In this document: positions 11,708 to 57,678 of the stretch, in pieces | Layout: the number at the start of each line of letters is the position of its first letter | Position numbering within the stretch: the stretch's first letter is position 1 | The notes under the pieces: model-generated | Databases searched by the model: none | Seen by the model: the letters and a program-made list of their open reading frames with translations, nothing else | Told to the model about the DNA's origin: nothing | Translations under genes and position numbers: made by a program | DNA from: Acidimicrobiia bacterium | Lineage (GTDB): Bacteria > Actinomycetota > Acidimicrobiia > IMCC26256 > JAGPDB01 | Reading direction: 5' to 3' | Length of the DNA: 64,000 bases | Assembly: GCA_046331265.1 (NCBI GenBank) | Contig: JAXLRE010000003.1 | Location: 10,538-74,537 of the forward strand

Positions 11708-11811
11708 CACATCATCCGTGTTGGGCAGATTTGAGTTTTGCGAATTACGCGAATAAGCATAAAGGCTCAAAACATCTAAAGTCCTCCTAAGAATGAACCG
11801 ATTTTATATGT

Positions 11812-13446
11812 ATGAGTTTTGGAAACGGGGTTGGGAGACTGTGCAGGGGCGTGTTACAGGTATTTCCAATAATTTTAATAGTCATAGTAGCTTTTAACGG
11901 TCTACATTCATTTGATAATAATGAGCAGAAAAATAAACTTAAGCCAATAATTTCTTCTAGTTCCGCTATTAGTCCACTTATCCGCATTAGTTCAGACGCT
12001 AACGTGTATTTAGTTAATGGAAATCAGCGTAATAAATTAATAAACCAAGATATTATAAATGACTACTCCATTTTAGGTCCTGTAAGAACAGTAGATCAGA
12101 GTTATTTTGATAGCCTTACGCCTGGTCCAGATTTAGGACGTATTGTAAAGTCGTCAACGGATTCAAAAATCTATTTATTGATTTCGGGTATAAAATTATT
12201 ATTTAGTTCTTGTGATCTTGTTACAAACTATGGAGCTGATTGCAATAACTTACCTGAGGTTTCTATAGATGTGCTATCGAAATTTGTGAATGGTCCTGGA
12301 GTTACACGATTTATTAAAAGTTCAATTGGGTCAACCGTATACTTCATCCAAAATGGAAAGAAAAGGCCAGTTGCAAGTTGGTCTAATCTTGTTGGTTTAG
12401 GATTTCCTATAGCAATAAATTGGTTGAATGATTCGTCTGTTAATTCGATACCAACTGGAGAATTGGCTTTTGGCTCAGGTGGTCTAATTAAAACTTCTTC
12501 ATCTGCAAGCGTGTATGCAATTAATGATTGGACAGATCCCTCGACGATATTCCCTGTGACTAGCTTTGGAATAACAATAGATTTAGGTTTAGGTACAGAT
12601 GTTAGTGTTGTAGATAATAGTGTTTTGTCGACGTATAGCATCGGAGCAAATTTGCGAAATACTATCAAATGTGGTTTGAATTACTATTCTGGTTCTAATG
12701 GCATACTGTATCAAATTAACCCATCATTATTTGCTCAATTTAGTCTATCTCAGTCAGATTTTCTAGAAAGTGGCGGTATTTGTAGTAGGTTCACAATAAG
12801 TCAAACCCAGATGTCGAGATTTATTCTCAACAGGGGCACAATTTACTTTGTTGAAAACGGCACAAAACGAGGGTTCACAAGCTATCGGGCATATTTAGAA
12901 AACGGAGGTACTCCTGAAACAACAGTTCCTGTCAGTGACAGTTTTGTAAATAGATTGCCAAATGGCTCACCAATCGTTGCAACACCTCCGAGAGGTGAAT
13001 CTGAAATCGCTAACGATATTTATAATAGGGTTAATCAGGAACGTGCTGCAAGAGGTTTAAATTCGCTTGGATGGGATAGCTTTTTAAATGCTAATGCTAG
13101 GAACTGGTCAGTAGCGATGGCTAATTCAAATTCATTTGCTCATTCTAATTTGTATCCATTACTTAACCGCTTCACTATTGCTGCTGAAAACATTGGTCTC
13201 GCTGGACCAGGTGCAAAATCTAGTGCATTGCACTTAGCATGGATGAACTCAACAGGGCATAGGGTTAACTTATTAGCTCCAAATCTTGATGTAATAGGTA
13301 TCGGTGTATATTGCGCACCTGATGGTCGACTTTGGGTAACGCAACAATTTGGTCGATGGCCAAATTCAGGTTTACCGATGTCTTTTGGTCCAACACCAAG
13401 TGTGGCACCTATTGTTGCAAATGATGACGGTGGGGCTACTTGCTAA
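11812..13446 (+). CDS. membrane-anchored/secreted protein with a repeat module and C-terminal CAP/SCP (PR-1-like) domain (gene A)
   Basis: 544 aa with an N-terminal hydrophobic anchor. About 300 aa are paralogous to gene B (13459-15225). The C-terminal segment NQERAARGL...AHSN...ENIG...WMNSTGHRVNLL resembles bacterial CAP/YkwD domains. Confidence 0.6.
   Translation: MSFGNGVGRLCRGVLQVFPIILIVIVAFNGLHSFDNNEQKNKLKPIISSSSAISPLIRISSDANVYLVNGNQRNKLINQDIINDYSILGPVRTVDQSYFDSLTPGPDLGRIVKSSTDSKIYLLISGIKLLFSSCDLVTNYGADCNNLPEVSIDVLSKFVNGPGVTRFIKSSIGSTVYFIQNGKKRPVASWSNLVGLGFPIAINWLNDSSVNSIPTGELAFGSGGLIKTSSSASVYAINDWTDPSTIFPVTSFGITIDLGLGTDVSVVDNSVLSTYSIGANLRNTIKCGLNYYSGSNGILYQINPSLFAQFSLSQSDFLESGGICSRFTISQTQMSRFILNRGTIYFVENGTKRGFTSYRAYLENGGTPETTVPVSDSFVNRLPNGSPIVATPPRGESEIANDIYNRVNQERAARGLNSLGWDSFLNANARNWSVAMANSNSFAHSNLYPLLNRFTIAAENIGLAGPGAKSSALHLAWMNSTGHRVNLLAPNLDVIGIGVYCAPDGRLWVTQQFGRWPNSGLPMSFGPTPSVAPIVANDDGGATC
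12784..12884. repeat. inverted repeat, left copy (101 bp, 100% identical to the reverse complement of 13559-13659)
   Basis: Base-by-base comparison by eye. It lies inside gene A and starts at codon phase 1. Confidence 0.95.
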
Positions 13447-13458
13447 TTGTTTATTAAT

Positions 13459-15225
13459 TTAATTAGAGATTGTTGGACCGTTTTGGATTCCATCTGCAAA
13501 TAAATTACTAACACTAATAGTAGGTGAACTTCCTCCTCCATTTGCAAGAAATGCAGAGTAGCTTGTGAACCCTCGTTTTGTGCCGTTTTCAACAAAGTAA
13601 ATTGTGCCCCTGTTGAGAATAAATCTCGACATCTGGGTTTGACTTATTGTGAACCTACTGCAGATATCACCGCTACTTAAGAAAGTATTATTTGTGTATC
13701 CAAAATGGGAATAAATGGATGGATCAATTTTATATAGAATACCATTCGTTCCGACATAGGTATTTAAACCACATTTAACTGTAGCTTTCAGATTACTACT
13801 CACATTAAAACTTGATAACTGGTTTGATGATACTGTTCTAACATCTGTTCCTAAACCTAAGTCGTTTGTATAACCGAAACTTGTTACAGGAAAAATGGTC
13901 GGATTTCCGTTCCAATCATTTACTGCATAAACTGATGCTGAAGTTGAGACTTTAATTAAGCTACCGCCTGTAACAACTAGATCTCCGGTGGGTATAGAGT
14001 CGAGTAACTCATCTGTCACTGAGTTGATACTATAACCAACATTGAGTTGAACTAAGTCTTGCCACGAGCCAATAGGACGTTTCTTGCCATCTTTGATATA
14101 GAAAACGGTAGATTGACTATTTGATTTTATTAATGAAGTGACAAGAGGCCCATTGACGAACATATTGAGTTGTATTGGAGTTAGCCTGTTAACACTTGCA
14201 CAACTGAAGCCATAGTCTGAAACAAGTTGGCAAGAAGTAAACGGAAGTTTAATTCCTGCAACAATTAAATAAAGGGTGCTGTCATTGACATCGGTAGAGC
14301 CAACCATTCTCGTTAAGATAGAACCGGATGAAATGTTATTTAGATAGCTCTGATCTACTATGCTAAGCGGTCCAAGAATACCATAATCGCTAAGAATCGC
14401 TCCTGAACTTATAGGGTATTTAACATTGTTGCTCAATAGGTATACGGTATTGTCGGATAGGCTTCTCACAAGATCACCAGTTGGTGAACCGAACCAGTCT
14501 GTAAAATCTCTCCAGAAATTTCGATTACCATAAGAGCTACATGAGTCTCCAGTGCCGTAAAGATTAGAAAGTGCTGCAGCATTAGGTTGGTATGGAGTAT
14601 ATGAATATAAAGCAGCTGTTCCGCGCGACTGGATGTTGACTACTGTGCCTCCACATGCGCCGTTAGGATGCCAGCCAATATAATAATTTCCTACTTTGAA
14701 AGGCACAAAAGAAAGAGAGTTATTATAAAACCCTTTTAGGTGTCTAGCCCCTTGGTACAGCTGTTTCGATAGTCCATACCACTGTGCATCGCAAGGGGCG
14801 GTATCAGGACATCCAAATCCCATTGCCGAACGATATTTACTGTCACTGCAATTTGTTGTAGTTATTAAACTTTGTTCTTTTTGTAAGGTCACAAGGATTA
14901 CCTGTGGATTGAGCCCGTACAGTGTACTTACATCAGAGATTGCTTGTGCAGCTGAAACTGGTCCACCATATGTGTTATTGCCAAGTGGTTGATCAGTTAT
15001 ATAATTCTTTAAACAAGTCGAGCCAACACCATTTACTGTATTTAAAAAATTCTGAATTTGTTGAGTGTTCATTGAAGAAGTGTTTGTAAAGATCCGGTCA
15101 TCAATAATTCGACCTGGGTTGAATCTAGATGCATCTGCTGCGTTTGCATCTGAGATATTAATAAGTTGGACGCTACCAAAAGTAGAGATAACAAGTAGAA
15201 GAACTAGAGCAATTCGCTTGATCAT
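13459..15225 (-). CDS. secreted protein, paralog of gene A with a distinct N-terminal domain (gene B)
   Basis: 588 aa. Signal peptide MIKRIALVLLLVISTFGSVQLINISDANA. The Cys-rich N-terminal domain (FNPGRIIDDRIF...QIQNFL) is seen in Gram-positive wall-associated proteins. The C-terminal roughly 330 aa are paralogous to gene A. Confidence 0.6.
   Translation of the reverse strand: MIKRIALVLLLVISTFGSVQLINISDANAADASRFNPGRIIDDRIFTNTSSMNTQQIQNFLNTVNGVGSTCLKNYITDQPLGNNTYGGPVSAAQAISDVSTLYGLNPQVILVTLQKEQSLITTTNCSDSKYRSAMGFGCPDTAPCDAQWYGLSKQLYQGARHLKGFYNNSLSFVPFKVGNYYIGWHPNGACGGTVVNIQSRGTAALYSYTPYQPNAAALSNLYGTGDSCSSYGNRNFWRDFTDWFGSPTGDLVRSLSDNTVYLLSNNVKYPISSGAILSDYGILGPLSIVDQSYLNNISSGSILTRMVGSTDVNDSTLYLIVAGIKLPFTSCQLVSDYGFSCASVNRLTPIQLNMFVNGPLVTSLIKSNSQSTVFYIKDGKKRPIGSWQDLVQLNVGYSINSVTDELLDSIPTGDLVVTGGSLIKVSTSASVYAVNDWNGNPTIFPVTSFGYTNDLGLGTDVRTVSSNQLSSFNVSSNLKATVKCGLNTYVGTNGILYKIDPSIYSHFGYTNNTFLSSGDICSRFTISQTQMSRFILNRGTIYFVENGTKRGFTSYSAFLANGGGSSPTISVSNLFADGIQNGPTISN
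13559..13659. repeat. inverted repeat, right copy (101 bp)
   Basis: Reverse complement is identical to 12784-12884. It lies inside gene B in the same codon phase. Confidence 0.95.
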
Positions 15226-16589: not shown

Positions 16590-16662
16590 GTCCCCGTCGA
16601 CTAGCGGCCTAGGTCGCCACCCTCTCAAGGTGGAAACGGCGGTTCAAATCCGCTCGGGGATG
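16590..16662 (+). tRNA. tRNA-Glu (anticodon CUC)
   Basis: Hand-folded 73 nt with the same architecture as E. coli tRNA-Glu. Acceptor GTCCCCG/CGGGGAT (G1-U72 wobble). D stem GACT/AGGTC. Anticodon stem CCACC/GGTGG with loop CTCTCAA. T arm GGCGG-TTCAAAT-CCGCT. Discriminator G. Confidence 0.8.
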
Positions 16663-16697
16663 CAATGAAAAGATCCGCTTGGGGATGCAATGAAAAT
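16648..16697 (+). repeat. tandem 25-bp duplication of the tRNA-Glu 3' end plus 10 downstream nt
   Basis: ATCCGCTCGGGGATGCAATGAAAAG is followed directly by ATCCGCTTGGGGATGCAATGAAAAT (23/25 identical). Confidence 0.9.
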
Positions 16698-18020: not shown

Positions 18021-18432
18021 ATAAAGAACTTTTTTTTATTTTTTAATAAATTTTTATAAAAAAATATTTACACAAAGCGTGAAAGTTTTTTACGCATTTT
18101 CATTTTTTGAAAATGATTAAAAATTAATTCGAAAAATTTAAATGCAAAATTTTGTTAACACATCGTTTTTATTTTGCATTTTATGTAAAACACCTAATAA
18201 ACTTAACTTTGTTAACTTTTGTGATGCACAAAAGTTAAGTTAAGAAAAAATGAAAGGAAGTTTTTTCTCGAATATATTAACGGGGGAGTTTTTCACTCTT
18301 TGTGAAAGATTTAAGTTTCTAACACATCTCATATTTCTCCAAAATATTTCGCGAAAATCTTTAAATACTTGACATTACTATCAAAACCAACTCGACTTGA
18401 TAGTTAACGGGCGAAAAACTTGGAGGTTAACC

Positions 18433-18711
18433 GTGAACAAGACAGAGCTTATTGAAGCAGCATCAGAACAAACAGGACTACCAAAAAGCAGTGTGGAAGC
18501 TTGCCTAAAAGCAATCACTGACACAATCGTTTCTAAGGTAGCAAAGAAAGAGCAAGTTACTCTTCCTGGTTTCGGAACATGGAAAGCATCAGAGCGAGCA
18601 GCTCGTGTTGGCCGTAATCCACAAACCGGTGAAGACATTAAGATCGCAGCAACCACTGTACCTAGCTTTAAAGCAGGATCTGCATTTAAAGAACAGGTTA
18701 AAAAAGGTTAA
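18433..18711 (+). CDS. hup: DNA-binding protein HU
   Basis: GTG start at 18433, 7 nt after GGAGG. The track start at 18397 is probably too early. [16 protein letters not shown]...[28 protein letters not shown] is canonical HU. Confidence 0.9.
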
Positions 18712-18776
18712 AGCGAAAAGTGACCCTTTTGGGTCTTGATCAAGACACCCTCAAGAAAAAGCGAAAGGTGGCAAAA

Positions 18777-19274
18777 ATGCCAGCAGCTAAGAAAGCAACA
18801 GCAGCAAAGCGCAAGCCTGCTGCAAAGAAAGCAGCAGCTAAAAAAGCTCCTGCAAAGAAAACAGCGGCACGTAAGCCAGCAGCTAAGAAAGCAGCAGCAA
18901 AGAAAACTACTGCTAAGAAAACTGCAGCTCGTAAGCCAGCAGCTAAGAAAGCAGCAGCAAAGAAAACTACTGCTAAGAAAACTGCAGCTCGTAAGCCAGC
19001 AGCTAAGAAAGCAGCAGCAAAGAAAACTACTGCTAAGAAAACTGCAGCTCGTAAGCCAGCAGCTAAGAAAGCAGCAGCAAAGAAAACTACTGCTAAGAAA
19101 ACTGCAGCTCGTAAGCCAGCAGCTAAGAAAGCAGCAGCAAAGAAAACTACTGCTAAGAAAACTGCAGCTCGTAAGCCAGCAGCTAAGAAAGCAGCAGCAA
19201 AGAAAACTACAGCTCGTAAACCAGCTGCTAGAAAAACAACTGCACGTAAAACTGCAAAGCGTAAAGCTCGATAA
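18777..19274 (+). CDS. Lys/Ala-rich histone H1-like protein (corresponds to the C-terminal tail of mycobacterial HupB)
   Basis: ATG at 18777 preceded by AAAGGTGG. About 165 aa of (P)[19 protein letters not shown] repeats. The reading frame stays open upstream to 18702. Confidence 0.75.
18871..19210 (+). repeat. perfect 60-bp tandem repeat, about 5.7 units
   Basis: The sequence lines beginning at 18901, 18961, 19021, 19081 and 19141 are identical. Each unit encodes 20 aa ([20 protein letters not shown]). Confidence 0.95.
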
Positions 19275-19290
19275 ATTTCGTAGCTATGGA

Positions 19291-19316
19291 AAAGGGGCCA
19301 TATGGCCCCTTTTTTT
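19291..19316 (+). terminator. rho-independent terminator
   Basis: GGGGCC-ATAT-GGCCCC followed by seven T, located 17 nt after the stop of the Lys-rich gene. Confidence 0.75.
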
Positions 19317-23213: not shown

Positions 23214-24443
23214 ATGGATGAGTCCCCGCGCAATCTGCGGAACATGCTTGCAGAGGCAAAAGATCATTCTGAGCTTATGATTGATTTAGCTTACGCGGCT
23301 TTGTTTTTTAACGATGAAAACATGGCACAAGAAGTTGATGATCTAGAAGATGACATGTTGGATCGTATACATGATATGCGTGAGATATGTATCCTCGCAG
23401 CACGAAATGTTCGTGAAGCAGAACAAATGAGTTCTGTATTGCTTGTTGTAAGTGCAATAGAACGTATGAGCGTCGCTGCAACCGATATAGCGCGCATCGT
23501 AACGCACGATCTTGGTATACCTGCCGCTTTATTACATGATCTTGCGCATGCGCAAGAAGTATCTCATCGTGTACGTGTTCGTGAAGATTCCGGCTTAGCT
23601 CAAAAAAGTCTCGAAGAGCTCGAGTTACCAACAGAATTATCTATGCGTGTCGTTGCAATAAGACGATCGAAAGCATGGATTATTGATCCTGATGGTGATG
23701 AAATAATAATGCCAGATGATGTCTTAATTGTTAGAGGATCTCCAGACGGAATTGCTGGGTTACGCTCCATGGCAGGTGCTCCAGAATTTAATCTGCCTCC
23801 CGCTGTTGACGATGGTGCTCTAACCGATTTGGATCGTGCTGTAGATGTGCTCGTAGAGATGAAAGATATTTCTGAAGTAGCAGTTGGACTTGCATACAGT
23901 GCAATATTATTTTCAGATCGATCATTGGCTGCGGAAGTAGCCCATCTTGAAGACAGAATCGATGAAATGCGTGAACATCTTGAGGTTTGGATATTACGTT
24001 CAGCAGCTGAAACAATCGACCCATCTTCACTTCGTGGTTTACTCCGTCTTGGTGGCGCTGCTGAAGAGATCGGTGATGCTGCTCAACAACTTGTTTGGCT
24101 GATCGAACGAGATGAAGAGATGCATCCAATATTACAAATTTCTTTAGGTGAAAGCGATGAAGTTGTTGTGCGTATGCCAGTTGCTGCTAACAGTCAAATA
24201 AGCGAAAAAACTCTGAAAGAAACACAACTTGAAATTGAAACAGGTTTCTTTTTACTTGCAATAAGACGTGCATCTCGATATGTTTATCGTCCACGTAGTA
24301 CACAAGTTATAAAAGCAGATGATGAGTTAATTGCAATTGGGCCTGGGGAAGGTCGAGAATATTTAGCTCAACTATGTGGGTATAACTTTATGCAAGACGA
24401 TGAAACAGGAGAATTTGAAATAGTTCTAGCAGATCAAAATTAA
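23214..24443 (+). CDS. PhoU-like plus TrkA-C (RCK_C) domain regulatory protein
   Basis: 409 aa with an alternating helical PhoU-like region and TrkA-C-like repeat (LEELELPTELSMRVVAIRR...IIMPDDVLIVRG). This type of protein is commonly paired with the upstream transporter type. Confidence 0.55.
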   Translation: MDESPRNLRNMLAEAKDHSELMIDLAYAALFFNDENMAQEVDDLEDDMLDRIHDMREICILAARNVREAEQMSSVLLVVSAIERMSVAATDIARIVTHDLGIPAALLHDLAHAQEVSHRVRVREDSGLAQKSLEELELPTELSMRVVAIRRSKAWIIDPDGDEIIMPDDVLIVRGSPDGIAGLRSMAGAPEFNLPPAVDDGALTDLDRAVDVLVEMKDISEVAVGLAYSAILFSDRSLAAEVAHLEDRIDEMREHLEVWILRSAAETIDPSSLRGLLRLGGAAEEIGDAAQQLVWLIERDEEMHPILQISLGESDEVVVRMPVAANSQISEKTLKETQLEIETGFFLLAIRRASRYVYRPRSTQVIKADDELIAIGPGEGREYLAQLCGYNFMQDDETGEFEIVLADQN

Positions 24444-26365
24444 GTAGCAGGAGTAGCTGTTGTGCTTGGTTGTCCTGCCACTGGTTTTGTTCCTCGATTA
24501 ACTTTTCGGGGAACCATATTGTATGTCCAGCGATAGCGTTCTTTTTTCCCTGGCTTACCAGGTCGGTCGACAGTTCTGAAATTATCGACAACAATTCCTG
24601 GATATCCTTTTTGTGTTTCTTTTTCTTTTCCAACTTCTAATGTTGGATCATCTGTATACTTTGTTTCGATTTCTGTACGTGAAATTTCGACTGGACCTTC
24701 GAGGGTAACTTTTCTGCCTTCTTTATTTCCATAGAGTGTAACTGTAACGCTTGTTGCTCCGACATAAGTTTTAATTAATATTCCAGATTTGGAATCATTG
24801 TTAAATGCCATGTCAATTGATCCATAATTTAAGGTCGCTTCACGGCCCATTGGATATCTGCTTATATAAATACTGTGGGGTGAATGCGTAATATCTTTAT
24901 ACCCACCTATGAAAGCTGCATTAAATAATGTTGTTGAAAATTGTGATGCGCCTCCACCAAAATCTTCAAAAAATCCATCTTTATCTGAGAAAACAGGGGC
25001 TTTTACATATCCGTTTTCTGCTGTTCGTCTGCCGAGCTTATTATTTAGTGAAAAAGTTACACCTGGTTCAAGGACTGTATTATTTACAACTTCTGCAGCA
25101 CGTCGGATATTTTTAACTCGTTCTTGACCTGCTGTAAAGTTTGTTGTGAAAGATGAAACAACTTCTGTGATATTTAAACTCTTTGCCCAACCAGTGTCAT
25201 GTTTAGGAGAAAAGTTTTTAATTGCTGCGACAAAGTTATGTTCGCCCTTTATCCAGAGTTTTAGTGCTGCAGTAAAATCTATTTGCTTCCCATCAACGCT
25301 CGGAACGACACTTACGCCCGTACCATTAACTGAAAATGAAGCATCTACAGGGGCTACTTCTACAGCACTTAGCTGAGAGGCTAATAAAGTTCTTATTTTT
25401 TCGTTATTTATACCAATCTTTAGAACTTTGTCCTTAGGAGTCACTTCTATAGATTGTGCTAATTGTGATGCGGTTATAGCTAATGTGTTTCCACCAGGTG
25501 TTGTTAATACAGAATCAGCACTAAACATTTTGCGCAATATGTCTGCAGTTTTATTTGCTTGTTCTAGAGATATTTTCGCTTGAACTTTCTCTACATTCAA
25601 GGATTGTTTCTTATCATTAAAGCTGACGATAGAAGCAGAGATAGCTGATTCTACTTGCTTCTCGGTTACACCTAATCCTGATTTAGGCTTTATAATGCTT
25701 ACTTTTGTTCCATCTATTTTTACGCCAGCATTCGCTTGGCCTTTTGAGAATCTATCTACAACTTTTGCAACAGCTAAATCATATTTTTTCGAATTTAATT
25801 TATATTCAATATTAATTTTTTCTTTTACGCTGTATCTTTTTATTGTGCCAGGAACAACCTCTAATGGGTTAAGAGAATCACCAATTTTTGAAGCTTTCAA
25901 TACAGATTTTTTGGTTTCGTAGATTAATCCAATATCTTGAGAAGAAATTGAAACCGATTTGTTGCCTAGAGTCAGTGTTATTGGCGTTTCTAGAGCATTT
26001 TTGACATTTTTATCTAATGTATTTGCTGCTTGGGTTATTGTCTTTCCGCCAACATTTACACCACTAATTGAGACACCTTTTGCGATTTTATTTCCTCTAA
26101 AAATCACATCTGCGTAACATAGAGAAAAAATTAAAGCTAGGACTATAAGAAAAGCAACAATTATTCGCTTATTAATTTTAAAAAATTGATTAAAAGATTT
26201 TTTTTCAACTTGAATTTCGTTTTTGTCGCCATCATGACCAGTGAGTATCTCAATACCATGAGAATCTTCGAATAAAGTTAAATCGATAACTGGCTGTTCA
26301 CCAAAATTTTCTCGAGAACGCGCAACTTCTATTAAGTCTTGTGATGTTGTCGGGGAATTGGCCAC
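24440..26365 (-). CDS. VanW-family protein with N-terminal TM anchor and C-terminal G5-like domain
   Basis: 641 aa. The VanW core is LEPGVTFSLNNKLGRRTAENGYVKAPVF...FGGGASQFSTTLFNAAF. A G5-like segment lies near the C-terminus. Confidence 0.8.
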   Translation of the reverse strand: MANSPTTSQDLIEVARSRENFGEQPVIDLTLFEDSHGIEILTGHDGDKNEIQVEKKSFNQFFKINKRIIVAFLIVLALIFSLCYADVIFRGNKIAKGVSISGVNVGGKTITQAANTLDKNVKNALETPITLTLGNKSVSISSQDIGLIYETKKSVLKASKIGDSLNPLEVVPGTIKRYSVKEKINIEYKLNSKKYDLAVAKVVDRFSKGQANAGVKIDGTKVSIIKPKSGLGVTEKQVESAISASIVSFNDKKQSLNVEKVQAKISLEQANKTADILRKMFSADSVLTTPGGNTLAITASQLAQSIEVTPKDKVLKIGINNEKIRTLLASQLSAVEVAPVDASFSVNGTGVSVVPSVDGKQIDFTAALKLWIKGEHNFVAAIKNFSPKHDTGWAKSLNITEVVSSFTTNFTAGQERVKNIRRAAEVVNNTVLEPGVTFSLNNKLGRRTAENGYVKAPVFSDKDGFFEDFGGGASQFSTTLFNAAFIGGYKDITHSPHSIYISRYPMGREATLNYGSIDMAFNNDSKSGILIKTYVGATSVTVTLYGNKEGRKVTLEGPVEISRTEIETKYTDDPTLEVGKEKETQKGYPGIVVDNFRTVDRPGKPGKKERYRWTYNMVPRKVNRGTKPVAGQPSTTATPAT

Positions 26366-43123: not shown

Positions 43124-44212
43124 ATGGATAAGCAATTTAAAGATTCACGTTTACGAGTTGGCGTTATTTATGGTGGACAAAGCGCTGAAAGAGATGTCTC
43201 TGCTGTAAGTGCTCGTGCTGTAGTGCAAAATCTTGATCCTGAAAAATATGAAGTTCTTCCTGTTGTTATTACTGAAACTGGCGAGTGGGTTTTTGCTGAA
43301 GAAACATATAAACAACTTCAACAGTCAAGATTCGAACTTCCTAAGTCGTTATCACTTAATGGTGCTGAACTTGTAGAAAGATCTGGCGCTATTGCTGTTG
43401 GTGGCAATCCGGTAGATATTGTGATCCCTATGCTTCATGGTCCTTATGGAGAAGATGGAACGATTCAGGGTCTATTAGAAATGGCAGATATCCCATATGT
43501 TGGTACATCAGTTTTAGGTTCAGCGATATGTATGAACAAAATTGCGTGTAAAAATATGTTGACATCGCATTTAATTCCGATTGCTCCGTTTATTTATACA
43601 CGCGAAAGTGAACTAGTTGGTTTTGTCGATAAAGTCGAAACAATTATTTCATATCCTTGTTTTGTTAAACCAGCAAATCTTGGTTCTTCAGTTGGTATAA
43701 CTAAAGCACATGATCGAGATGAACTTGCAGATGCAATTGAAATTGCTTTGAAATATGACGAATGGATTGTTGTAGAAAAAGCTGTTGATGCACGCGAAAT
43801 TGAACTATCTGTAATGGGTGATGTAGACGTTCAAGCTAGTGTTCCAGGAGAAATTGTTCCCGGCGAAGAGTTTTATTCTTATACCGATAAATATGTGACA
43901 GATGCAGCTGAGCTTAGGATCCCTGCACCATTGTCTGAACGTGAAATGGCTGCGGCACAAGACTTAGCTATACGTGCATATAAAGCTTTGTGCTGTGACG
44001 GTATGGCTCGAGTTGATTTATTTTATGAAAAGGGAACAGGCAAGTGGATGGTTAATGAACTAAACACTATTCCAGGATTTACCCCTATATCGATGTTTCC
44101 AAAACTTTTTGAATATTCAGGTAAAAGTTATTCACAGCTCTTGGATGAATTAATTGCAATCGCACTAGATCGTCATGATCGACGTAACTCTAAGAAAAAT
44201 CTAGAACATTAA
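43124..44212 (+). CDS. ddl: D-alanine--D-alanine ligase
   Basis: 362 aa. Has HGPYGEDGTIQGLLE, an ATP-grasp domain and a C-terminal NELNTIPGFT motif. Confidence 0.9.
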   Translation: MDKQFKDSRLRVGVIYGGQSAERDVSAVSARAVVQNLDPEKYEVLPVVITETGEWVFAEETYKQLQQSRFELPKSLSLNGAELVERSGAIAVGGNPVDIVIPMLHGPYGEDGTIQGLLEMADIPYVGTSVLGSAICMNKIACKNMLTSHLIPIAPFIYTRESELVGFVDKVETIISYPCFVKPANLGSSVGITKAHDRDELADAIEIALKYDEWIVVEKAVDAREIELSVMGDVDVQASVPGEIVPGEEFYSYTDKYVTDAAELRIPAPLSEREMAAAQDLAIRAYKALCCDGMARVDLFYEKGTGKWMVNELNTIPGFTPISMFPKLFEYSGKSYSQLLDELIAIALDRHDRRNSKKNLEH

Positions 44213-44482: not shown

Positions 44483-44538
44483 GGTGTTACGATTTTCTAT
44501 CGAAATTCGATAGTAAACAAACCCGCCCCAACACGGGG
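44483..44538 (-). repeat. third copy of the about 55-nt palindromic element (family shared with 52563-52618 and 53670-53725)
   Basis: Shares the blocks GATTTTCTATCGAAA, CGATAGT and CCCAACACGGG with 53670-53725. Contains the 17-bp perfect palindrome CTATCGAAATTCGATAG (44497-44513). Confidence 0.7.
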
Positions 44539-44598: not shown

Positions 44599-45948
44599 AT
44601 GGGAATTTTTAAACGAACACCTCAAATAACGATTTCAGACGATGTATTGGCAGAAATTGGTCGACGAAAAACAGAACGTGAAAGAGTTATTGCAGAAAAT
44701 GAAGTTACTCCGGAAAAAGTGCGAGCAGCAATAACAGATCGTGATTGGGCTCGCTTGGAAAAACTTTTTAGAACCAATGATCATTTTATTGTCAATTACG
44801 CAGATATAACTGATGAAGAACGGAGAGGTATTGAAGATCTTCATGATGAGATCACTGAACTAATACGAAATTCAGATGTCACACCAGAATTAGTTTCGTT
44901 TATTTCATTTTATTATGAGCGTACATGGATCGGTGTGGAAGACGTTGATGCCCTGTGTGCTGATCGAATTGATGAAGCAGGCCTAGAGATACGAATTACT
45001 TTTCCAAATCTTAAATGGGGGACTCCTCCACGCGACATAGCTGAATTTATATCGAAATCAGATTTATTTACGAGTAAATTTGGCGAGAAGCTTGTTAGCC
45101 ATGTAATTAGTCATATTCGTATTGATAACGCTGCCGATGCTGAAGAATTTGCAACGGCACTCGATCCGATTATTGACTTAAAAGGCGATTGGAATTTATA
45201 TGGCTTCTTGAGAAGATTTGAAGGATTAGATGACTTCCAACTGATAATCGACAAATCACAATTTCAAAAAATGTTAAGAAATAGTCAAAATGGTTCAGTA
45301 GCTTATCTATTAGCAAATGGAAAGTATCCAAATGTAGATCATAGTGATTTTGAAATTGCTGTTAGGGCTATTGGGGAAGAAAATATCCATCCATTTTCTG
45401 GCGGCACTGAAAACAGCCAAACTAACGTCGCAAAATTAATTTTAGATAAATTACCAAAAGTAACTAAATCTGATATTGATGTAATCGTAGAACAATTGAC
45501 TTTACATCCAACCAACTCTCAGCTAAACCTGATACTTTCAAAAGCTCTTGATAAATTACCTTCACGAAACGGTAGTAACGATGCCATAGTCTCAGCGTTA
45601 ATACCTCTTAATAGAGACGGTGTTACAAAAGTATTAATTGAAAAAGGCATCTATTCTCCAGATTCAGAAAGCATCACTCGCTTTTTTACTGAAGGACATT
45701 ACGGTTCGGTTGAAGCGTTGGCCGTAAAAGGATTTATACCTAGTTCAGAAGAATTCGATAGAGCGCTAAGCGATGAAAGGAGCGATTTAATCGGAATGTT
45801 CATTGCTAACGGTTATGTTCCATCAACAGTCGATCAAGTCCGTGCATTGCCAGACTATATAATGACAGCTCTTGAAGAACGACTTAGCGCTAACGGTGTA
45901 AAAATACCAACAGTTGCAACGAATTTAATAGAAGCACCTGGCCTTTAA
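44599..45948 (+). CDS. hypothetical protein with C-terminal short helical repeats
   Basis: 449-aa ORF with no known motif. The repeated pattern is described in the findings. Confidence 0.5.
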   Translation: MGIFKRTPQITISDDVLAEIGRRKTERERVIAENEVTPEKVRAAITDRDWARLEKLFRTNDHFIVNYADITDEERRGIEDLHDEITELIRNSDVTPELVSFISFYYERTWIGVEDVDALCADRIDEAGLEIRITFPNLKWGTPPRDIAEFISKSDLFTSKFGEKLVSHVISHIRIDNAADAEEFATALDPIIDLKGDWNLYGFLRRFEGLDDFQLIIDKSQFQKMLRNSQNGSVAYLLANGKYPNVDHSDFEIAVRAIGEENIHPFSGGTENSQTNVAKLILDKLPKVTKSDIDVIVEQLTLHPTNSQLNLILSKALDKLPSRNGSNDAIVSALIPLNRDGVTKVLIEKGIYSPDSESITRFFTEGHYGSVEALAVKGFIPSSEEFDRALSDERSDLIGMFIANGYVPSTVDQVRALPDYIMTALEERLSANGVKIPTVATNLIEAPGL

Positions 45949-51985: not shown

Positions 51986-52558
51986 ATGATTGAATGTCGT
52001 GTATATGTTGGCGACCTTTTAAATCATTTAGGTTCAAAACGAGAAATTCATTTATCAATACCAGGTGTAGGTTTTTCATCAGCTCTTTGTTCTGTAATTG
52101 ATGATGTTGAATGTAATCTAACTTTAGAATCTGTAACTGGTGGAATTGTTGTTCATGGTTTTCTAGATGGAAACTATTCTGCACAATGTAGTTATGGTTT
52201 GACAGATATAGTTGACAGTTTTCATTTCAATGTTAATGAACTTTTTGAATCACCAAGAGAACGAGATAAGAAAATAATTAATATTGATGTTGAAGGACAG
52301 CTTGGTCAAGATGATAATTATCAATTCACAGGAGACGAATTAGATCTTGAACAAATGTTTCGTGATGTAATAATTACAGGATTGCCCTTAGCGCCTGTTT
52401 GTGCTCATGGGCCAGAAAATTGTTCTGTTTGTTCAGTGCAAATCAAGAAATTTATATCTAAGCGTTTTGATAAATCTGATGAAGTAATTGGTGGAATCGA
52501 TGACGTTTTAAATCAACATGACCCAAGGTGGTCGGCGCTGGACGACTTCAAGCCCTAA
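51986..52558 (+). CDS. yceD: YceD/DUF177 family protein
   Basis: 190 aa. The C-terminal Cys motif (PVCAHGPENCSVC) and the position upstream of rpmF fit YceD. Confidence 0.75.
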   Translation: MIECRVYVGDLLNHLGSKREIHLSIPGVGFSSALCSVIDDVECNLTLESVTGGIVVHGFLDGNYSAQCSYGLTDIVDSFHFNVNELFESPRERDKKIINIDVEGQLGQDDNYQFTGDELDLEQMFRDVIITGLPLAPVCAHGPENCSVCSVQIKKFISKRFDKSDEVIGGIDDVLNQHDPRWSALDDFKP

Positions 52559-52562
52559 CTCT

Positions 52563-52618
52563 TTCCCGTGTTGGGTCGAAAAACTATCGTTTTTCGATAG
52601 AAAATCCCACAAACACAT
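52563..52618 (+). repeat. 56-bp inverted repeat, left copy (structured palindromic element)
   Basis: Its reverse complement is identical to 53670-53725, verified base by base. It contains two overlapping palindromes: TCGAAAAAC/GTTTTTCGA and CTATCG/CGATAG. Confidence 0.95.
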
Positions 52619-52629
52619 ATAATTAGTGA

Positions 52630-53670
52630 ATGAAATATGCATTTTACGCTGACTATTCTGAAGGTGCTCATGAAGAAATACTTAAAGCATTATCGAAATT
52701 TTCTTCTTCGCAAGATCTCACGTATGGGTACGACAAACATAGCGAAAACGCTCGTAATCTAATTAGAGAAGAATTTAATTTAACCAATGCTTTTGTTGAT
52801 TTTGTTCCTTCTGGAACTATGGCAAATATTGTTTGCTTGGCCTCACTTCTAAAACCATATGAAGCAGCTATTGCAGCGACAACCGGACATATAAATGTTC
52901 ATGAATCAGGTGCGATAGAAGCTACGGGTCATAAAGTATTGTCATTTGAAACTGATGATGGAAAAATCACAAAAGAAATTATTGATAAAGCTCTCGGAAC
53001 TTATGAAGATGAGCACACTGTCATTCCTAAAGTTATTTATGTATCGCAAACAACAGAAGTTGGTACTGCTTATACAATAAAAGAACTAACAGAAATTATT
53101 AACTATGCAAAACAAAATAATCTTTTTGTATACTTAGACGGAGCAAGGCTTGCTATGGCGATTGCCAGCGATGCTTGTGATTTCAGCGCTGAAAGTTTCT
53201 CGGAAATCGCTCAATTATTAGATGCTTTTTATATTGGTGGAACAAAAAATGGTGGATTATTTGGTGAAGCTGTTGTCGTAAACAATTCAGAAGCTGCTAA
53301 TAACTTTCGACATATTATGAAGCAGCGTGGAGCAATTATCGGTAAGGGGCGTGCTATCGGGCAGCAATTTGAGAGATTTTTCGCCGAAGATAAGTTATAT
53401 ATTCAGACTGCTAAGCATGCTGTTGATATGTCAAAAAAACTTTATGATGGTTTAAAAAATTTAAGTATTAAATTTGATCATGAATATGTTTCTAATCAAC
53501 TTTTCCCAATTTTAGAAACAAGAGTGATAGATGAGCTTGAAAAATCTTATGGTTTTTATCGATATGAAAAGATTGGCGATAATCTCCAAAAAATTAGGCT
53601 TGTTACATCTTGGGGTACTCCATCTAATGCAATAGACCAGTTTATTGAAGATTTAAATCGCCTTATTTAA
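52630..53670 (+). CDS. ltaE: threonine aldolase-like PLP enzyme (beta-eliminating lyase family)
   Basis: 346 aa. SGTMANI, YLDGARL and the PLP-lysine context GGTKNGG. The gene symbol is tentative. Confidence 0.75.
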   Translation: MKYAFYADYSEGAHEEILKALSKFSSSQDLTYGYDKHSENARNLIREEFNLTNAFVDFVPSGTMANIVCLASLLKPYEAAIAATTGHINVHESGAIEATGHKVLSFETDDGKITKEIIDKALGTYEDEHTVIPKVIYVSQTTEVGTAYTIKELTEIINYAKQNNLFVYLDGARLAMAIASDACDFSAESFSEIAQLLDAFYIGGTKNGGLFGEAVVVNNSEAANNFRHIMKQRGAIIGKGRAIGQQFERFFAEDKLYIQTAKHAVDMSKKLYDGLKNLSIKFDHEYVSNQLFPILETRVIDELEKSYGFYRYEKIGDNLQKIRLVTSWGTPSNAIDQFIEDLNRLI

Positions 53671-53725
53671 TGTGTTTGTGGGATTTTCTATCGAAAAACG
53701 ATAGTTTTTCGACCCAACACGGGAA
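53670..53725 (-). repeat. 56-bp inverted repeat, right copy
   Basis: Perfect reverse complement of 52563-52618. It starts at the last base of the ltaE-like stop codon. Confidence 0.95.
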
Positions 53726-53745
53726 GGTGTGGGGGGGGTAGGGAA

Positions 53746-53775
53746 TTGAGGTATTTGTCGTTAATGGGGTAGAAT
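53746..53775 (+). promoter_or_regulatory. candidate promoter giving a leaderless transcript for the 53783 ORF
   Basis: TTGAGG (53746-53751), an 18-nt spacer, then TAGAAT (53770-53775). The ATG at 53783 lies 7 nt after the -10 element, and no SD is present. Confidence 0.3.
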
Positions 53776-53782
53776 TGCATTT

Positions 53783-54454
53783 ATGTCTAACAAACCTGGA
53801 ACAACAATTTTTTCAAACGCACTACCATCATCTGCGATGCCAACATTTAATGGACCAAAACAACTTCTTGAAAAAGTAGGTGCATCTATCATCCCTACAG
53901 CTGTTAAACAAACATTTGGTCAAATTGGCGATTCATTCGAAATTAGCTTGATCAGATTTGCTGGTGGAGTTCAGCGTGTCAAATTATCGGCAATAACTTC
54001 TGGTACAAGTGGACAATATGACCATGGTTTTAAAAATGTTGACGAAATGGTTTTTTGGTTTCAAGGTGATAGAAAACCTTTTGGGCCTACATCAGCAAAG
54101 CATCATATTCAATCTGCAAACTTTCAATTTGAGTTAGTTAGAGAAATAGAAACAGGACGTAAAGCTGCACAAACAAATGCTGCCAAACTTTTAGCACTAC
54201 TAGAAGAACATGGTGCAGAATTTCTAGATTCTATTGATGACCCAAACTTAGCAAGTGACGCTGCAGTAGCGTTGCTAGGGGTAAGAGCTAAATTATCTAA
54301 TCCTGTAAAAACTTTCGGACCAGGTGCGATCGAAGCAGATCTAAGCCCTGATGCAATTAAAGTTTCAGATCGATTTAGAAGACACGCTGAGGGCAAAATT
54401 CTTTTAGAACCAGCATTTGATATAAGTCCTAAAGGTGTATTTCATGCACGATAA
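53783..54454 (+). CDS. hypothetical protein
   Basis: 223-aa ORF with no recognisable motif. It is part of the insertion between yceD and rpmF. Confidence 0.45.
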   Translation: MSNKPGTTIFSNALPSSAMPTFNGPKQLLEKVGASIIPTAVKQTFGQIGDSFEISLIRFAGGVQRVKLSAITSGTSGQYDHGFKNVDEMVFWFQGDRKPFGPTSAKHHIQSANFQFELVREIETGRKAAQTNAAKLLALLEEHGAEFLDSIDDPNLASDAAVALLGVRAKLSNPVKTFGPGAIEADLSPDAIKVSDRFRRHAEGKILLEPAFDISPKGVFHAR

Positions 54455-54550: not shown

Positions 54551-54730
54551 ATGGTTGAGCCAAAGCGTAAAACACCGCAAAGTAAAACAAGATCGAGAAA
54601 AGCGGCTGCGTGGAAACTAGAAGCTTCAGCTCAATCATCATGTCCTAACTGCGGTGTAGCAAAACTTCCTCACGTCGTATGTTCAAACTGTGGACACTAT
54701 AAAGGCCGAGTTGCAATAGACGTCGGCTAA
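54551..54730 (+). CDS. rpmF: 50S ribosomal protein L32
   Basis: Not in the ORF track (59 aa). My translation is MVEPKRKTPQSKTRSRKAAAWKLEASAQSSCPNCGVAKLPHVVCSNCGHYKGRVAIDVG. It has the L32 KRKTS-type N-terminus and a CxxC...CxxC zinc ribbon. Confidence 0.9.
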   Translation: MVEPKRKTPQSKTRSRKAAAWKLEASAQSSCPNCGVAKLPHVVCSNCGHYKGRVAIDVG

Positions 54731-56005: not shown

Positions 56006-56764
56006 GTGATTGACGAAACTACCGAAACAGAACAAGTTGAAGAAAATGAAGAGATAACTGTTGAAGATAGAGCTTACGATTGTGCGAAATTTTTAGGTTA
56101 CGAACCAAAAGATATCAATTTATTGAAAACTGCATTAACGCACAGAAGCTACAGCGCTGAGCATGGTGGCGTTGAAAATAATGAGAGACTTGAATTTTTA
56201 GGAGATGCTGTTTTAGATCTAGTTCTTTCTGACATTTTATTTCTTGCGAATAAAGATATGCCAGAAGGTGAATTAGCGAAGGCTCGATCTGCAGTTGTAA
56301 ATGAAGATACTTTGGCTGACATCGCAACTGAAATCAATTTAGGTTCATATATGTTTTTTGGTGTAGGTGAAGCTAAAAGCGGAGGAGCAAACAAAAGATC
56401 AATTCTGGCTGATGCAATGGAAGCTGTTATTGCCGCTATGTATTTAGATCTAGGTTACGAATTTGCAAAATCTTTTGTTTCTAAACATTGGGAGTCAAGA
56501 GCACAAATAAGCGCAAACAATCCAGGTATCGCTGATTACAAAACACGATTCCAAGAAGCAATTGTTAAATTTAATTCTTCTAAGCCAAGGTATTACTGCG
56601 AAGCAATAGGTCCTGAACACAATCGTGTTTTTAATGCACATGTTTATTCAAATGATATTGAAATGGGTTCAGGTGTTGGACGTTCAAAAAAAATTGCTGA
56701 ACAAGATGCTGCAAGAAACGCTCTTGAATATTTAGAGAAGCTTGAATCTCAAGACAAAAAATGA
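56006..56764 (+). CDS. rnc: ribonuclease III
   Basis: ERLEFLGDAVL signature and a C-terminal dsRBD. GTG start. Confidence 0.9.
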   Translation: MIDETTETEQVEENEEITVEDRAYDCAKFLGYEPKDINLLKTALTHRSYSAEHGGVENNERLEFLGDAVLDLVLSDILFLANKDMPEGELAKARSAVVNEDTLADIATEINLGSYMFFGVGEAKSGGANKRSILADAMEAVIAAMYLDLGYEFAKSFVSKHWESRAQISANNPGIADYKTRFQEAIVKFNSSKPRYYCEAIGPEHNRVFNAHVYSNDIEMGSGVGRSKKIAEQDAARNALEYLEKLESQDKK

Positions 56765-57678
56765 ATATTGTAATTCCTCCTGAAAATACTCTAGACAGAG
56801 CTGCTTCACTTGCTGCAGGTTGGGATCCAACAAGTAATGAAATCCCAACATATAGTTTTGGTGAACTTTCAAAAGATCTAACTGAATATAAAACATTTTT
56901 CAATGACCTAATCAACAATGTTGCTAATTCAGAACACAATGATTTACTTTCAGAAATAATTGATGTTGATGAGCCAGAAGACTTTCCTTTGATAAATAAC
57001 CCAGTTGAAGAAGAAATGTTAGTTATTGACCCCTCGAAGAGCTCCGAGATTGGTCTATACCCTAAAGCTGCTCTTTGGCAATCAGGATGGAATAATGCAT
57101 TACCTTATGTTTTTGTTAGAAAACAGGTTTATGACAATTTATGTAATGCTGTAGAAATTATTAAATCATTACATGAAGATTTGACACTTTGTGTTACAGA
57201 TGGGTGGCGTTCAATTGAACAACAAAGTGACTTGTATCATTCTTTTTATCCGGAAGGGCATATTGAAGGTGAACCTGTATACGTAAGTAAACCAAATGTC
57301 CAAGACCGATATGCTGCTCCACATCCAAGTGGAGGTGCAGTTGATGTACTTTTAGGAATAAAAGATCAAGCAATACGAATTGGCAGCGATTTAGATTACA
57401 TGGAAGCTCAAGCCAACACTGCACACTTTGAAAACTCAGATGATTATTTGGTGAAATCTATGCGGAGGATATTTACAAATATCATGACTAATGTTGGTTT
57501 TGTCTGTTTGGATTCGGAATGGTGGCATTTTGAGTACGGAACACGTAGATGGGCAGGCAAGAAGAAATGTGAACCACTTTATGGAAATGCATTTATAGAA
57601 CAAGAAGTCTATGAAAATATAAAGCCAGTTAAACATTTAGCAGGAAGCAAAAGATTATATATAGATAAGGTCCAGTAA
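56761..57678 (+). CDS. D-alanyl-D-alanine dipeptidase-like (VanX/DdpX, M15D) with about 105-aa N-terminal extension
   Basis: HPSGGAVDV (HxxGxAxD) and EWWHFEY motifs lie in the C-terminal 200 aa. The N-terminal extension has no recognisable motif. Confidence 0.7.
   Translation: MNIVIPPENTLDRAASLAAGWDPTSNEIPTYSFGELSKDLTEYKTFFNDLINNVANSEHNDLLSEIIDVDEPEDFPLINNPVEEEMLVIDPSKSSEIGLYPKAALWQSGWNNALPYVFVRKQVYDNLCNAVEIIKSLHEDLTLCVTDGWRSIEQQSDLYHSFYPEGHIEGEPVYVSKPNVQDRYAAPHPSGGAVDVLLGIKDQAIRIGSDLDYMEAQANTAHFENSDDYLVKSMRRIFTNIMTNVGFVCLDSEWWHFEYGTRRWAGKKKCEPLYGNAFIEQEVYENIKPVKHLAGSKRLYIDKVQ

Follow-up and report, generated by a model that had tools for sequence, protein, structure and literature searches.

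The locus considered here lies in a stretch of 64,000 nucleotides (64 kb, referred to below as the window; 36.8% G+C) from the genome of an Acidimicrobiia bacterium (GCA_046331265.1, contig JAXLRE010000003.1, positions 10,538 to 74,537) and comprises two copies of a 56-nt repeat, in inverted orientation, that enclose one gene for a threonine-aldolase-like enzyme. The genes are arranged in the order rsmD, coaD, a gene for a protein of 189 residues, yceD, the repeat-aldolase-repeat unit, a gene for a protein of 223 residues, rpmF, plsX, the acyl carrier protein gene, and rnc. The left neighbor, yceD (DUF177; matched by the Pfam YceD model; 51986–52558, + strand), is the last gene of a rsmD-coaD-x-yceD block. 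The left copy of the repeat (52563–52618, + strand) starts 4 nt past the stop codon of yceD and ends 11 nt ahead of the ATG of the aldolase gene (52630–53670, + strand). The right copy (53670–53725, - strand) starts at the final base of the TAA stop codon of this gene and is separated by 57 nt from the gene for the 223-residue protein (53783–54454, + strand), which is fast-evolving and located directly 5′ of rpmF. The rpmF gene (54551–54730, + strand), for ribosomal protein L32, is the conserved right anchor of the locus, and rnc (56006–56764), for RNase III, lies 2.3 kb downstream of the unit. An earlier note on this DNA had described exact 56-bp inverted repeats enclosing 1051 bp with only the aldolase-like open reading frame, the left copy ending 11 nt before the ATG and the right copy beginning with the last base of the stop codon, and had placed rnc 2.3 kb downstream; direct comparison of the arms and the gene coordinates agree with this description.

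The Repeat Pair and the Enclosed Gene

The segments 52563–52618 and 53670–53725 are exact reverse complements across all 56 nt. The span assigned to the pair by a repeat finder is 74 nt with 91% identity; past the 56-nt arms the matches number 10/24 outward and 9/24 inward, which is about background, so the unit is sharp-edged. The arms enclose 1051 bp (52619–53669) that have 52630–53670 as the sole long open reading frame, and arms and gene together make up 1163 bp. Module A (CCCGTGTTGGG) and module C (ACTATCG-N5-CGATAGAAAATC), with a spacer between them and a tail after module C, make up each 56-nt unit; the left copy has the parts in this order on the + strand, and the right copy is its exact reverse complement. 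Module A is a mini-hairpin located at 52565–52575 (+ strand) and mirrored at 53713–53723, as well as at 44527–44537 in a third, diverged copy that is described below. Module C of the left copy, ACTATCG-TTTTT-CGATAGAAAATC, occupies 52583–52606 (+ strand) and holds a 17-bp palindrome, CTATCG-N5-CGATAG. The sub-palindromes TCGAAAAAC-TATC-GTTTTTCGA and CTATCG-TTTTT-CGATAG and the CCC-GTGTT-GGG mini-hairpin, all of which had been pointed out previously, are present in each copy. The 22-nt core of the repeat had 0 matches in 100 shuffles, and a perfect inverted repeat of 56 nt cannot arise by chance.

Directly past the right copy is a G-rich tract, GGTGTGGGGGGGGTAGGG (53726–53745), that includes a run of eight G and is located just 5′ of the -35 region of the gene for the 223-residue protein. 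Such a tract is rare for a genome of 37% G+C. It is able to pair with the CCCAACAC end of the repeat and is a candidate for slippage.

The enclosed gene is intact and encodes a pyridoxal phosphate-dependent enzyme of the threonine aldolase family with 346 residues. It matches the Pfam Beta_elim_lyase model (E = 1e-30) and, over residues 3–346, the threonine aldolase structure 1SVV of the Protein Data Bank (E = 8e-83), and it retains the GGTKNG motif with the lysine that binds the cofactor. Homologues cover 100% of the protein. Its score is far under the NCBI cut-off for the LtaE of Escherichia coli type, and therefore "threonine-aldolase-like" is the right level at which to name it. The closest homologues of the enzyme are 50–58% identical; their genes are located 4 nt from their upstream neighbors, and no flanking inverted repeats were found around them. 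No transposase, integrase, resolvase, invertase, or HUH enzyme was identified by Pfam among essentially all open reading frames of at least 55 residues in the window, which bears out the earlier statement that a transposase is missing.

Transcription Signals and RNA Folding

Among the 37 genes of the window with at least 35 nt of upstream sequence, 11 have a TANNNT motif exactly 6 nt before the start codon, as compared with a background of 1.8% per position (P = 3e-11). TANNNT is known as an actinobacterial -10 motif, and leaderless mRNAs are abundant in actinobacteria (PMC3898074). The geometry thus points to leaderless mRNAs as a probably extensive feature of this low-G+C Acidimicrobiia lineage. 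The aldolase gene is one of the 11. In its putative leaderless promoter, 6 nt separate a TATAAT -10 box (52618–52623, + strand) from the ATG; the left arm ends with the first T of this box, and a -35-like TCGATA (52594–52599) is located inside the left arm, with an 18-nt spacer to the -10 box. This is the best promoter-like site in a scan of the region, with 10/12 positions matched. Because the -10 box is exactly 6 nt from the ATG, the aldolase's own mRNA would be expected to begin with the ATG and so to be without the left arm. The gene for the 223-residue protein also has a promoter of leaderless type (TAGAAT, 53770–53775, plus 7 nt). A candidate antisense promoter in the right copy was ruled out; the inner flank, TTAAAT/TAAATA, does not fit TANNNT.

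The right copy contains, directly past the stop codon of the aldolase, a terminator-like hairpin, CTATCG-AAAAA-CGATAG, followed by TTTTT (53688–53709, + strand). Scoring placed this CTATCGAAAAACGATAG hairpin with its T run in the right copy for the + strand and in the left copy for the - strand. It has a 6-bp stem with three G-C pairs and fits the style of other gene ends in this genome, which consist of an A run, an AT-rich hairpin, and a T run. The proposal that the right copy resembles a weak intrinsic terminator is upheld in this respect. A more stable alternative hairpin of 9 bp takes the T run into its stem, and because this competing structure sequesters the T run, the right copy is a weak terminator at best.

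The earlier note had favored the view that a transcript of the gene would have complementary ends of 56 nt, forming a stem that resembles the RNase III processing stems around ribosomal RNA (rRNA). According to this explanation, the arms exist for the sake of a double-stranded RNA stem of 56 bp, and cleavage by RNase III would excise the aldolase RNA from a transcript running from yceD to rpmF or would set its stability. For read-through RNA from yceD the stem is thermodynamically real: in the minimum-energy fold of an RNA extending from yceD past the right arm, all 56 inter-arm pairs are formed, with a duplex energy of -98.5 kcal/mol. Such read-through is plausible, as no terminator that would stop it was scored on the + strand of the left arm. 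The presence of rnc close by would also suit the stem, and in Correia elements the inverted repeats form hairpins that RNase III cleaves (PMC2649163). However, the predicted leaderless mRNA of the aldolase lacks the left arm, and during transcription the local hairpins form first; each 56-nt unit alone folds into an imperfect 17-bp hairpin (RNA, -16.1 and -17.0 kcal/mol; DNA, z = -3.7 and -4.0, with -11.6 kcal/mol for the left copy). Moreover, rpmF and the gene for the 223-residue protein have their own promoters, so there is no need for insulation. The rnc gene is in the same place in all relatives, which lack the repeats, and therefore its proximity reflects only conserved synteny.

The comparison with other genomes, described below, also weighs against a stem as the purpose of the repeats. 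Both gene and repeats are missing at this locus in five related lineages, the arms occur in no relative, and neither conservation nor covariation supports the pairing. The earlier note had itself said that relatives with the same gene, unchanged expression, and no flanking repeats would tell against its proposal; the closest homologues of the gene supply a part of this, since no repeats flank them. The third copy of the repeat stands alone between divergent gene starts and has no partner, so that no long-range stem is possible there. The arrangement shares with rRNA stems a long perfect complementarity around a functional RNA of at least 1 kb and a stem that dominates the fold of the spanning transcript. 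In contrast with rRNA stems, which are conserved, show covariation, and are part of an obligatory common transcript, the aldolase unit has its own promoter within the left-arm boundary, occurs in one genome only, and encloses an mRNA. It is distinctly improbable that the arms serve as an RNase III stem.

A Third Copy and the Repeat Family

A search for repeats across the whole window identified a third copy of the element at about 44486–44538 (- strand), which brings the number of copies in the window to three, two identical and one diverged. In this copy, 22/24 positions of module C are retained (44491–44514), with both differences in the center, or loop, of the palindrome, and module A is present as an exact 11-mer (11/11), placed and oriented with respect to module C as it is in the arms. 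The spacer is 13 nt in length as compared with 8 nt in the arms, and the inner end differs. Module C is the best-kept block. The chance expectation for such module C matches in the window is ~1e-6, the composite A-C pattern occurs exactly three times, and the likeness of the third copy to the arms is not due to chance. The third copy is located between the divergent starts of a stand-alone Lrp/AsnC ligand-binding-domain gene of 81 codons (44461–44216, - strand) and an orphan gene of 449 codons (44599–45948, + strand) whose putative promoter has the sequence TGaTATTAT plus 6 nt. The only match of the 449-residue protein among 5.8 billion proteins was to itself. In the left arm and in the third copy alike, the order of module A, spacer, and module C is directed at the adjoining gene start. 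Judged by these shared modules, the arms are two members of a small, lineage-restricted family of hairpin-forming intergenic repeats. Long-range pairing does not hold for the family in general, since the third copy has no partner.

In a related lineage (L001), the AsnC-domain gene directly follows the phosphoenolpyruvate carboxykinase gene with a gap of 81 nt that contains a terminator hairpin, and there is neither an orphan gene nor an element; in the window the two genes are separated by the orphan gene and by the third copy of the repeat. The two-module pattern had 0 matches in 185,579 species genomes, the JGI metagenomes, and viral contigs. A looser pattern for module C had 11 metagenome matches on unrelated high-G+C contigs, about the number expected by chance; blastn of the 56-mer against plasmids and phages found only matches of 26–28 nt to the palindrome (E of 0.009 or worse), and no copy had a match in Rfam, either at the gathering threshold or with E up to 5. 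To our knowledge, the motifs of LexA, dif, parS, and DnaA boxes do not fit the repeat sequence. The repeat family is new, lineage-specific, real, and non-random. A near match to module A beside tRNA-Gln (11715–11725) was rejected as being at chance level, with about one expected.

The conservation of individual blocks is pertinent to a second explanation, in which the repeats are binding sites for a regulator. Here the 17-bp palindrome CTATCG-N5-CGATAG would be the operator of one dimeric factor, possibly responsive to amino acids, that controls the aldolase gene from a site in the -35 region, perhaps with looping to the downstream site, and also controls the divergent pair of AsnC-domain and orphan genes; the 56-nt identity would then go back to a regulatory module that was recently duplicated nearby in inverted form or underwent gene conversion. 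Consistent with this, module C is the best-kept block and its two differences are in the center of the palindrome, which, being sequence kept in the absence of covariation, suggests recognition by a protein. The palindrome of the left copy spans approximately -46 to -30, counted from the ATG, of the predicted promoter, the third copy is in a divergent promoter region beside a Lrp/AsnC ligand-binding-domain gene, and both adjacent functions concern amino acids. Near-identical palindromes are also found just 3′ of canonical promoters in unrelated metagenome contigs, but the number of these matches is about that expected by chance. The 56/56 identity, which includes the non-palindromic flanks, is not needed for an operator, the sites are not kept at the corresponding loci of relatives, and no regulator with a DNA-binding domain is encoded beside any copy, the AsnC-type gene being devoid of a helix-turn-helix. 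Of the earlier suggestion of two operators for one regulator, the well-kept palindrome stands, whereas a neighboring regulator is lacking. We regard operator function as doubtful, although it retains an appreciable chance of being correct.

Four of the metagenome contigs (L016–L019) deserve a separate remark. They have the palindrome CTATCGRTTTTCGATAG directly 3′ of a conserved TTGACA-N17-TACCAT/TACTAT promoter, upstream of genes for binding proteins of TRAP transporters and a short-chain dehydrogenase. The contigs have 52–55% G+C and are unrelated to the window, and the palindrome looks like the operator of a regulon of sugar-acid type.

The window contains some other repeats. The other long inverted repeat (12769–12908 and 13535–13674; 140 nt, 90% identity) is not related to the element and represents coding similarity between two convergent paralogues; the shared coding block (...ICSRFTISQTQMSRFILNRGTIYFVENGTKRGFTSY...) is near the C-terminal parts of two large proteins of secreted type, encoded at 11812–13446 (+ strand, CAP domain) and 13459–15225 (- strand), and the near-identity of the DNA suggests recent gene conversion between the paralogues. 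Two direct repeats of 24 nt (ATCCGCTYGGGGATGCAATGAAAA, 96% identical; 16648–16696) overlap or directly follow the 3′ end of tRNA-Glu (16590–16663) and resemble a duplicated tRNA 3′ end, for example an old integration scar. An open reading frame with an HU domain (18397–18711) is followed in another frame by one composed of tandem 15-nt and 60-nt repeats (18720–19274) that codes for a repeated Lys/Ala-rich tail. The region (18397–19316) resembles a split actinobacterial protein of the HupB/Hlp type, which may reflect a frameshift, an assembly slip, or two genuine genes. The window also encodes a protein with a VanW domain (24440–26365), a D-Ala-D-Ala ligase (43124–44212), and a VanX-like D-Ala-D-Ala dipeptidase of the M15 family (56761–57678); at the corresponding positions of L001 there is no ligase gene, and the genes for the dipeptidase and mutM are likewise missing.

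Related Lineages and the Origin of the Unit

Only ten YceD homologues were found in the protein collection, the best being 49–57% identical; this small number of distant homologues indicates an isolated lineage. Scanning the genome collection on the basis of plsX turned up no relative. Five related lineages (L001, L003, L007, L025, and L026) keep the order rsmD-coaD-x-yceD...rpmF-plsX-acp-rnc-(DUF4395)-smc. These lineages are distant, with yceD identities of 49–57%, and their intergenic DNA cannot be aligned with the window. Neither the aldolase gene nor the repeat element is present at the yceD-rpmF site in the five, and the cassette is specific to this genome among the compared lineages. The number of genes between yceD and rpmF varies: there are none in L003–L006, one in L001 and L002, two in L007, and three in L026 and L027, and L025 has a convergent gene. 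No flanking inverted repeats were found at other variable genes, whether in this interval or in the surroundings of the third copy of the element.

The 223-residue protein had only eight matches among 1.8 billion representatives. Its profile matched a 197-residue protein of L007 with a probability of 85% (E = 6e-6), and a 160-residue protein of L001 matched a 182-residue protein of L026 (E = 3e-8). The gene is the positional counterpart of the genes 5′ of rpmF in the relatives, as judged from these matches and from its location. Given that it has positional homologues, it is the aldolase gene and its two repeats that make up the added piece. More generally, the yceD-rpmF interval contains small genes, zero to three in number, that evolve very fast and lack any known domain; some of them are related only by profile or weak BLAST matches. 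The small genes beside the L32 gene (53783–54454 in the window; 1098–2313 in L007; 8602–9084 in L001; 711–2337 in L026) form a family that is kept in position and labile in sequence.

On the basis of these results, our preferred interpretation, to which we give a probability of roughly 0.45, is that the two inverted copies bound an accessory cassette with one gene, inserted between yceD and the gene 5′ of rpmF and similar to mobile insertion cassettes or Correia elements. An intact gene within inverted repeats, the absence of a transposase, the gene's own expression signals, a variable slot in a conserved locus, and an older solo copy elsewhere in the window are together best fitted by such a cassette. 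Arms that are perfectly identical and end abruptly are indicative of either one recent event or conversion that is still going on between them. For two copies inserted at random among the approximately 65 intergenic gaps, the chance of bracketing one gene in opposite orientations is only ~1.5%, which favors a single event. The whole 1163-bp unit would thus have arrived or been created in one recent event, most probably as a passenger cassette bounded by inverted repeats and moved in trans, in the manner of a mobile insertion cassette; alternatively, gene conversion may have kept the arms identical. The left copy would supply the upstream half of the promoter, including the -35-like TCGATA, phased A and T tracts, and a palindrome to which a regulator may bind, and the flanking sequence would complete the -10 box, as in promoters made by Correia elements. 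The right copy, with its hairpin and T run, would act as a weak terminator for the aldolase gene. The arms being identical, a promoter half and a terminator would be available to the gene whichever way it is oriented. The 56-bp RNA duplex, along with cuts made in it by RNase III, would be expected only in read-through transcripts from yceD, as a by-product.

The closest precedents are the mobile insertion cassettes (MICs), such as MIC231 of Bacillus cereus and mic-qnrD and mic-qnrS2 on small plasmids, in which one or a few passenger genes lie between two inverted repeats, as they do here. A MIC by definition lacks a transposase (PMC3913671). The aldolase unit resembles MICs in having no transposase inside or nearby, in carrying its own expression signals, and in being an insertion relative to related sequences. 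However, MICs usually show a target-site duplication, and the aldolase unit has none; their repeats derive from the ends of known insertion sequences and are 20–50 bp and often imperfect, whereas the aldolase arms are 56 bp, perfect, internally palindromic, and have no known parent. By this comparison, the cassette is only putatively mobile. It may once have been mobile, but because it lacks both a target duplication and a known parent element, membership among the MICs cannot be claimed. A pair similar to miniature inverted-repeat transposable elements (MITEs) that mobilizes the gene, which had been suggested in the earlier note, is close to the cassette preferred here; the missing target-site duplication does not fit it.

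The individual units resemble the Correia elements of Neisseria and the ERIC, REP/BIME, and RPE families, in that they are short, non-coding, hairpin-forming, and intergenic. As is found for Correia elements and MITEs, each is a short hairpin unit (17 bp, imperfect, with DNA z scores of -3.7 to -4.0). A -35 and a partial -10 sequence, the latter completed by the flank, are contributed by Correia elements (PMC2649163), and the promoter of the aldolase gene, with its -35 in the element and a partial -10 completed by the flank, is similar to this "Black promoter." Further points of likeness are that transcripts of Correia elements can be substrates of RNase III and that presence or absence differs between relatives, as has been described for Correia-like and other small palindromic repeats (PMC2649163; PMC2229807). 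Correia elements are, however, single units of 70–157 bp with TA target duplications and 100–250 copies per genome, in contrast with the two separate 56-nt units located 1 kb apart around a gene with no TA duplication and with the total of only three copies in the 64 kb. REP or REPIN elements would be expected to come with a RAYT (IS200/IS605-like) transposase and with palindromes of 20–40 nt in high copy number; no Y1/HUH transposase was found in the window by Pfam. An integron origin was considered and rejected: attC sites carry RYYYAAC 5′ and GTTRRRY 3′, follow one another in direct orientation, and are accompanied by an integrase gene, whereas in the unit GTTGGGT is on the 5′ side and RYYYAAC is missing from the 3′ side of both strands, its copies are inverted rather than direct, and there is no integrase.

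Several observations weigh against the interpretation as a cassette. No target-site duplication is present at the outer flanks CTAACTCT and GGTGTGGG at any plausible boundary, as had been noted before, and no short duplication (e.g. TA) was found around any of the three units in the window. No autonomous element with matching ends was found in the genome, metagenome, viral, plasmid, and phage collections. A terminal inverted repeat of 56 nt with internal palindromes is unusual for DDE transposons. The aldolase gene has a GC content of 0.34 and a GC3 of 0.20, both typical for genes of the window, and base composition thus gives no sign of a recent foreign origin. The third copy has no T run and no obvious -10 sequence after it, so the roles in promoter and terminator formation do not generalize. 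Finally, modules A and C are retained as blocks, a pattern that resembles the effect of functional constraint, for instance at a protein-binding site, more than the decay of transposon ends.

An invertible segment, also proposed in the earlier note, is another way to account for the perfect arms. The 1051-bp segment could be inverted by RecA acting on the 56-bp homology or by a recombinase encoded elsewhere, and flipping would keep the arms identical by conversion. A perfect 56-bp inverted repeat is a sufficient substrate for homologous inversion at low frequency, and perfect identity with abrupt edges is what conversion between the arms would maintain. Invertons are defined through their flanking inverted repeats (PMC11892184, PMC11602134), which surround a discrete segment, as they do in this locus. 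Unlike invertons, the aldolase unit has no recombinase nearby, as neither an invertase nor an integrase is encoded in the 64 kb, and no switch of expression is predicted for it, since on inversion the -10 box would move with the gene and meet an identical repeat. Known invertons usually carry promoters or gene fragments, whereas the cargo here is a whole enzyme gene of housekeeping type. Thus, although the substrate for inversion is present, an invertible cassette is improbable.

A combination of these functions can also be envisaged. In this, the arms would form an orientation-neutral, self-insulating frame that provides half a promoter or a terminator to whichever gene end faces it, in read-through transcripts the 56-bp duplex, cut by RNase III, would lead to excision of the acquired gene's RNA from the yceD-to-rpmF transcription unit, and occasional flipping would keep the arms identical. 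If this were true, insertion would be tolerated in an essential locus for ribosomal and lipid-synthesis functions. We consider it very improbable.

Assembly error is unlikely. The sequence is from a metagenome-assembled genome, and the repeat length of 56 is one more than a common k-mer size, 55 (k+1), so that the structure might be the result of a wrong path through a repeat node of 56 bp. However, yceD and the block upstream of rpmF are the neighbors that are expected from synteny. Both flanks join the module A side of a non-palindromic unit, and therefore any true path holds two inverted copies. The gene is intact, the junctions are exactly intergenic and form a standard -10 spacing and a stop codon, and the independent, diverged third copy shows that the element is real. 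The chance that a wrong path produced the structure is accordingly very slight.

The unit is a single instance in one metagenome-assembled genome; it is of modest interest as a curiosity and does not represent a new kind of system. It provides a natural test case for whether long perfect repeats around an mRNA lead to cleavage by RNase III, to DNA inversion, or are mere insertion scars. If the interpretation as an inserted cassette is correct, a small, compact genome of an uncultured actinobacterial lineage would have added a single metabolic gene to a conserved housekeeping locus, and the gene would have come with a ready-made promoter half and terminator by way of a repeat family that is absent from the databases.

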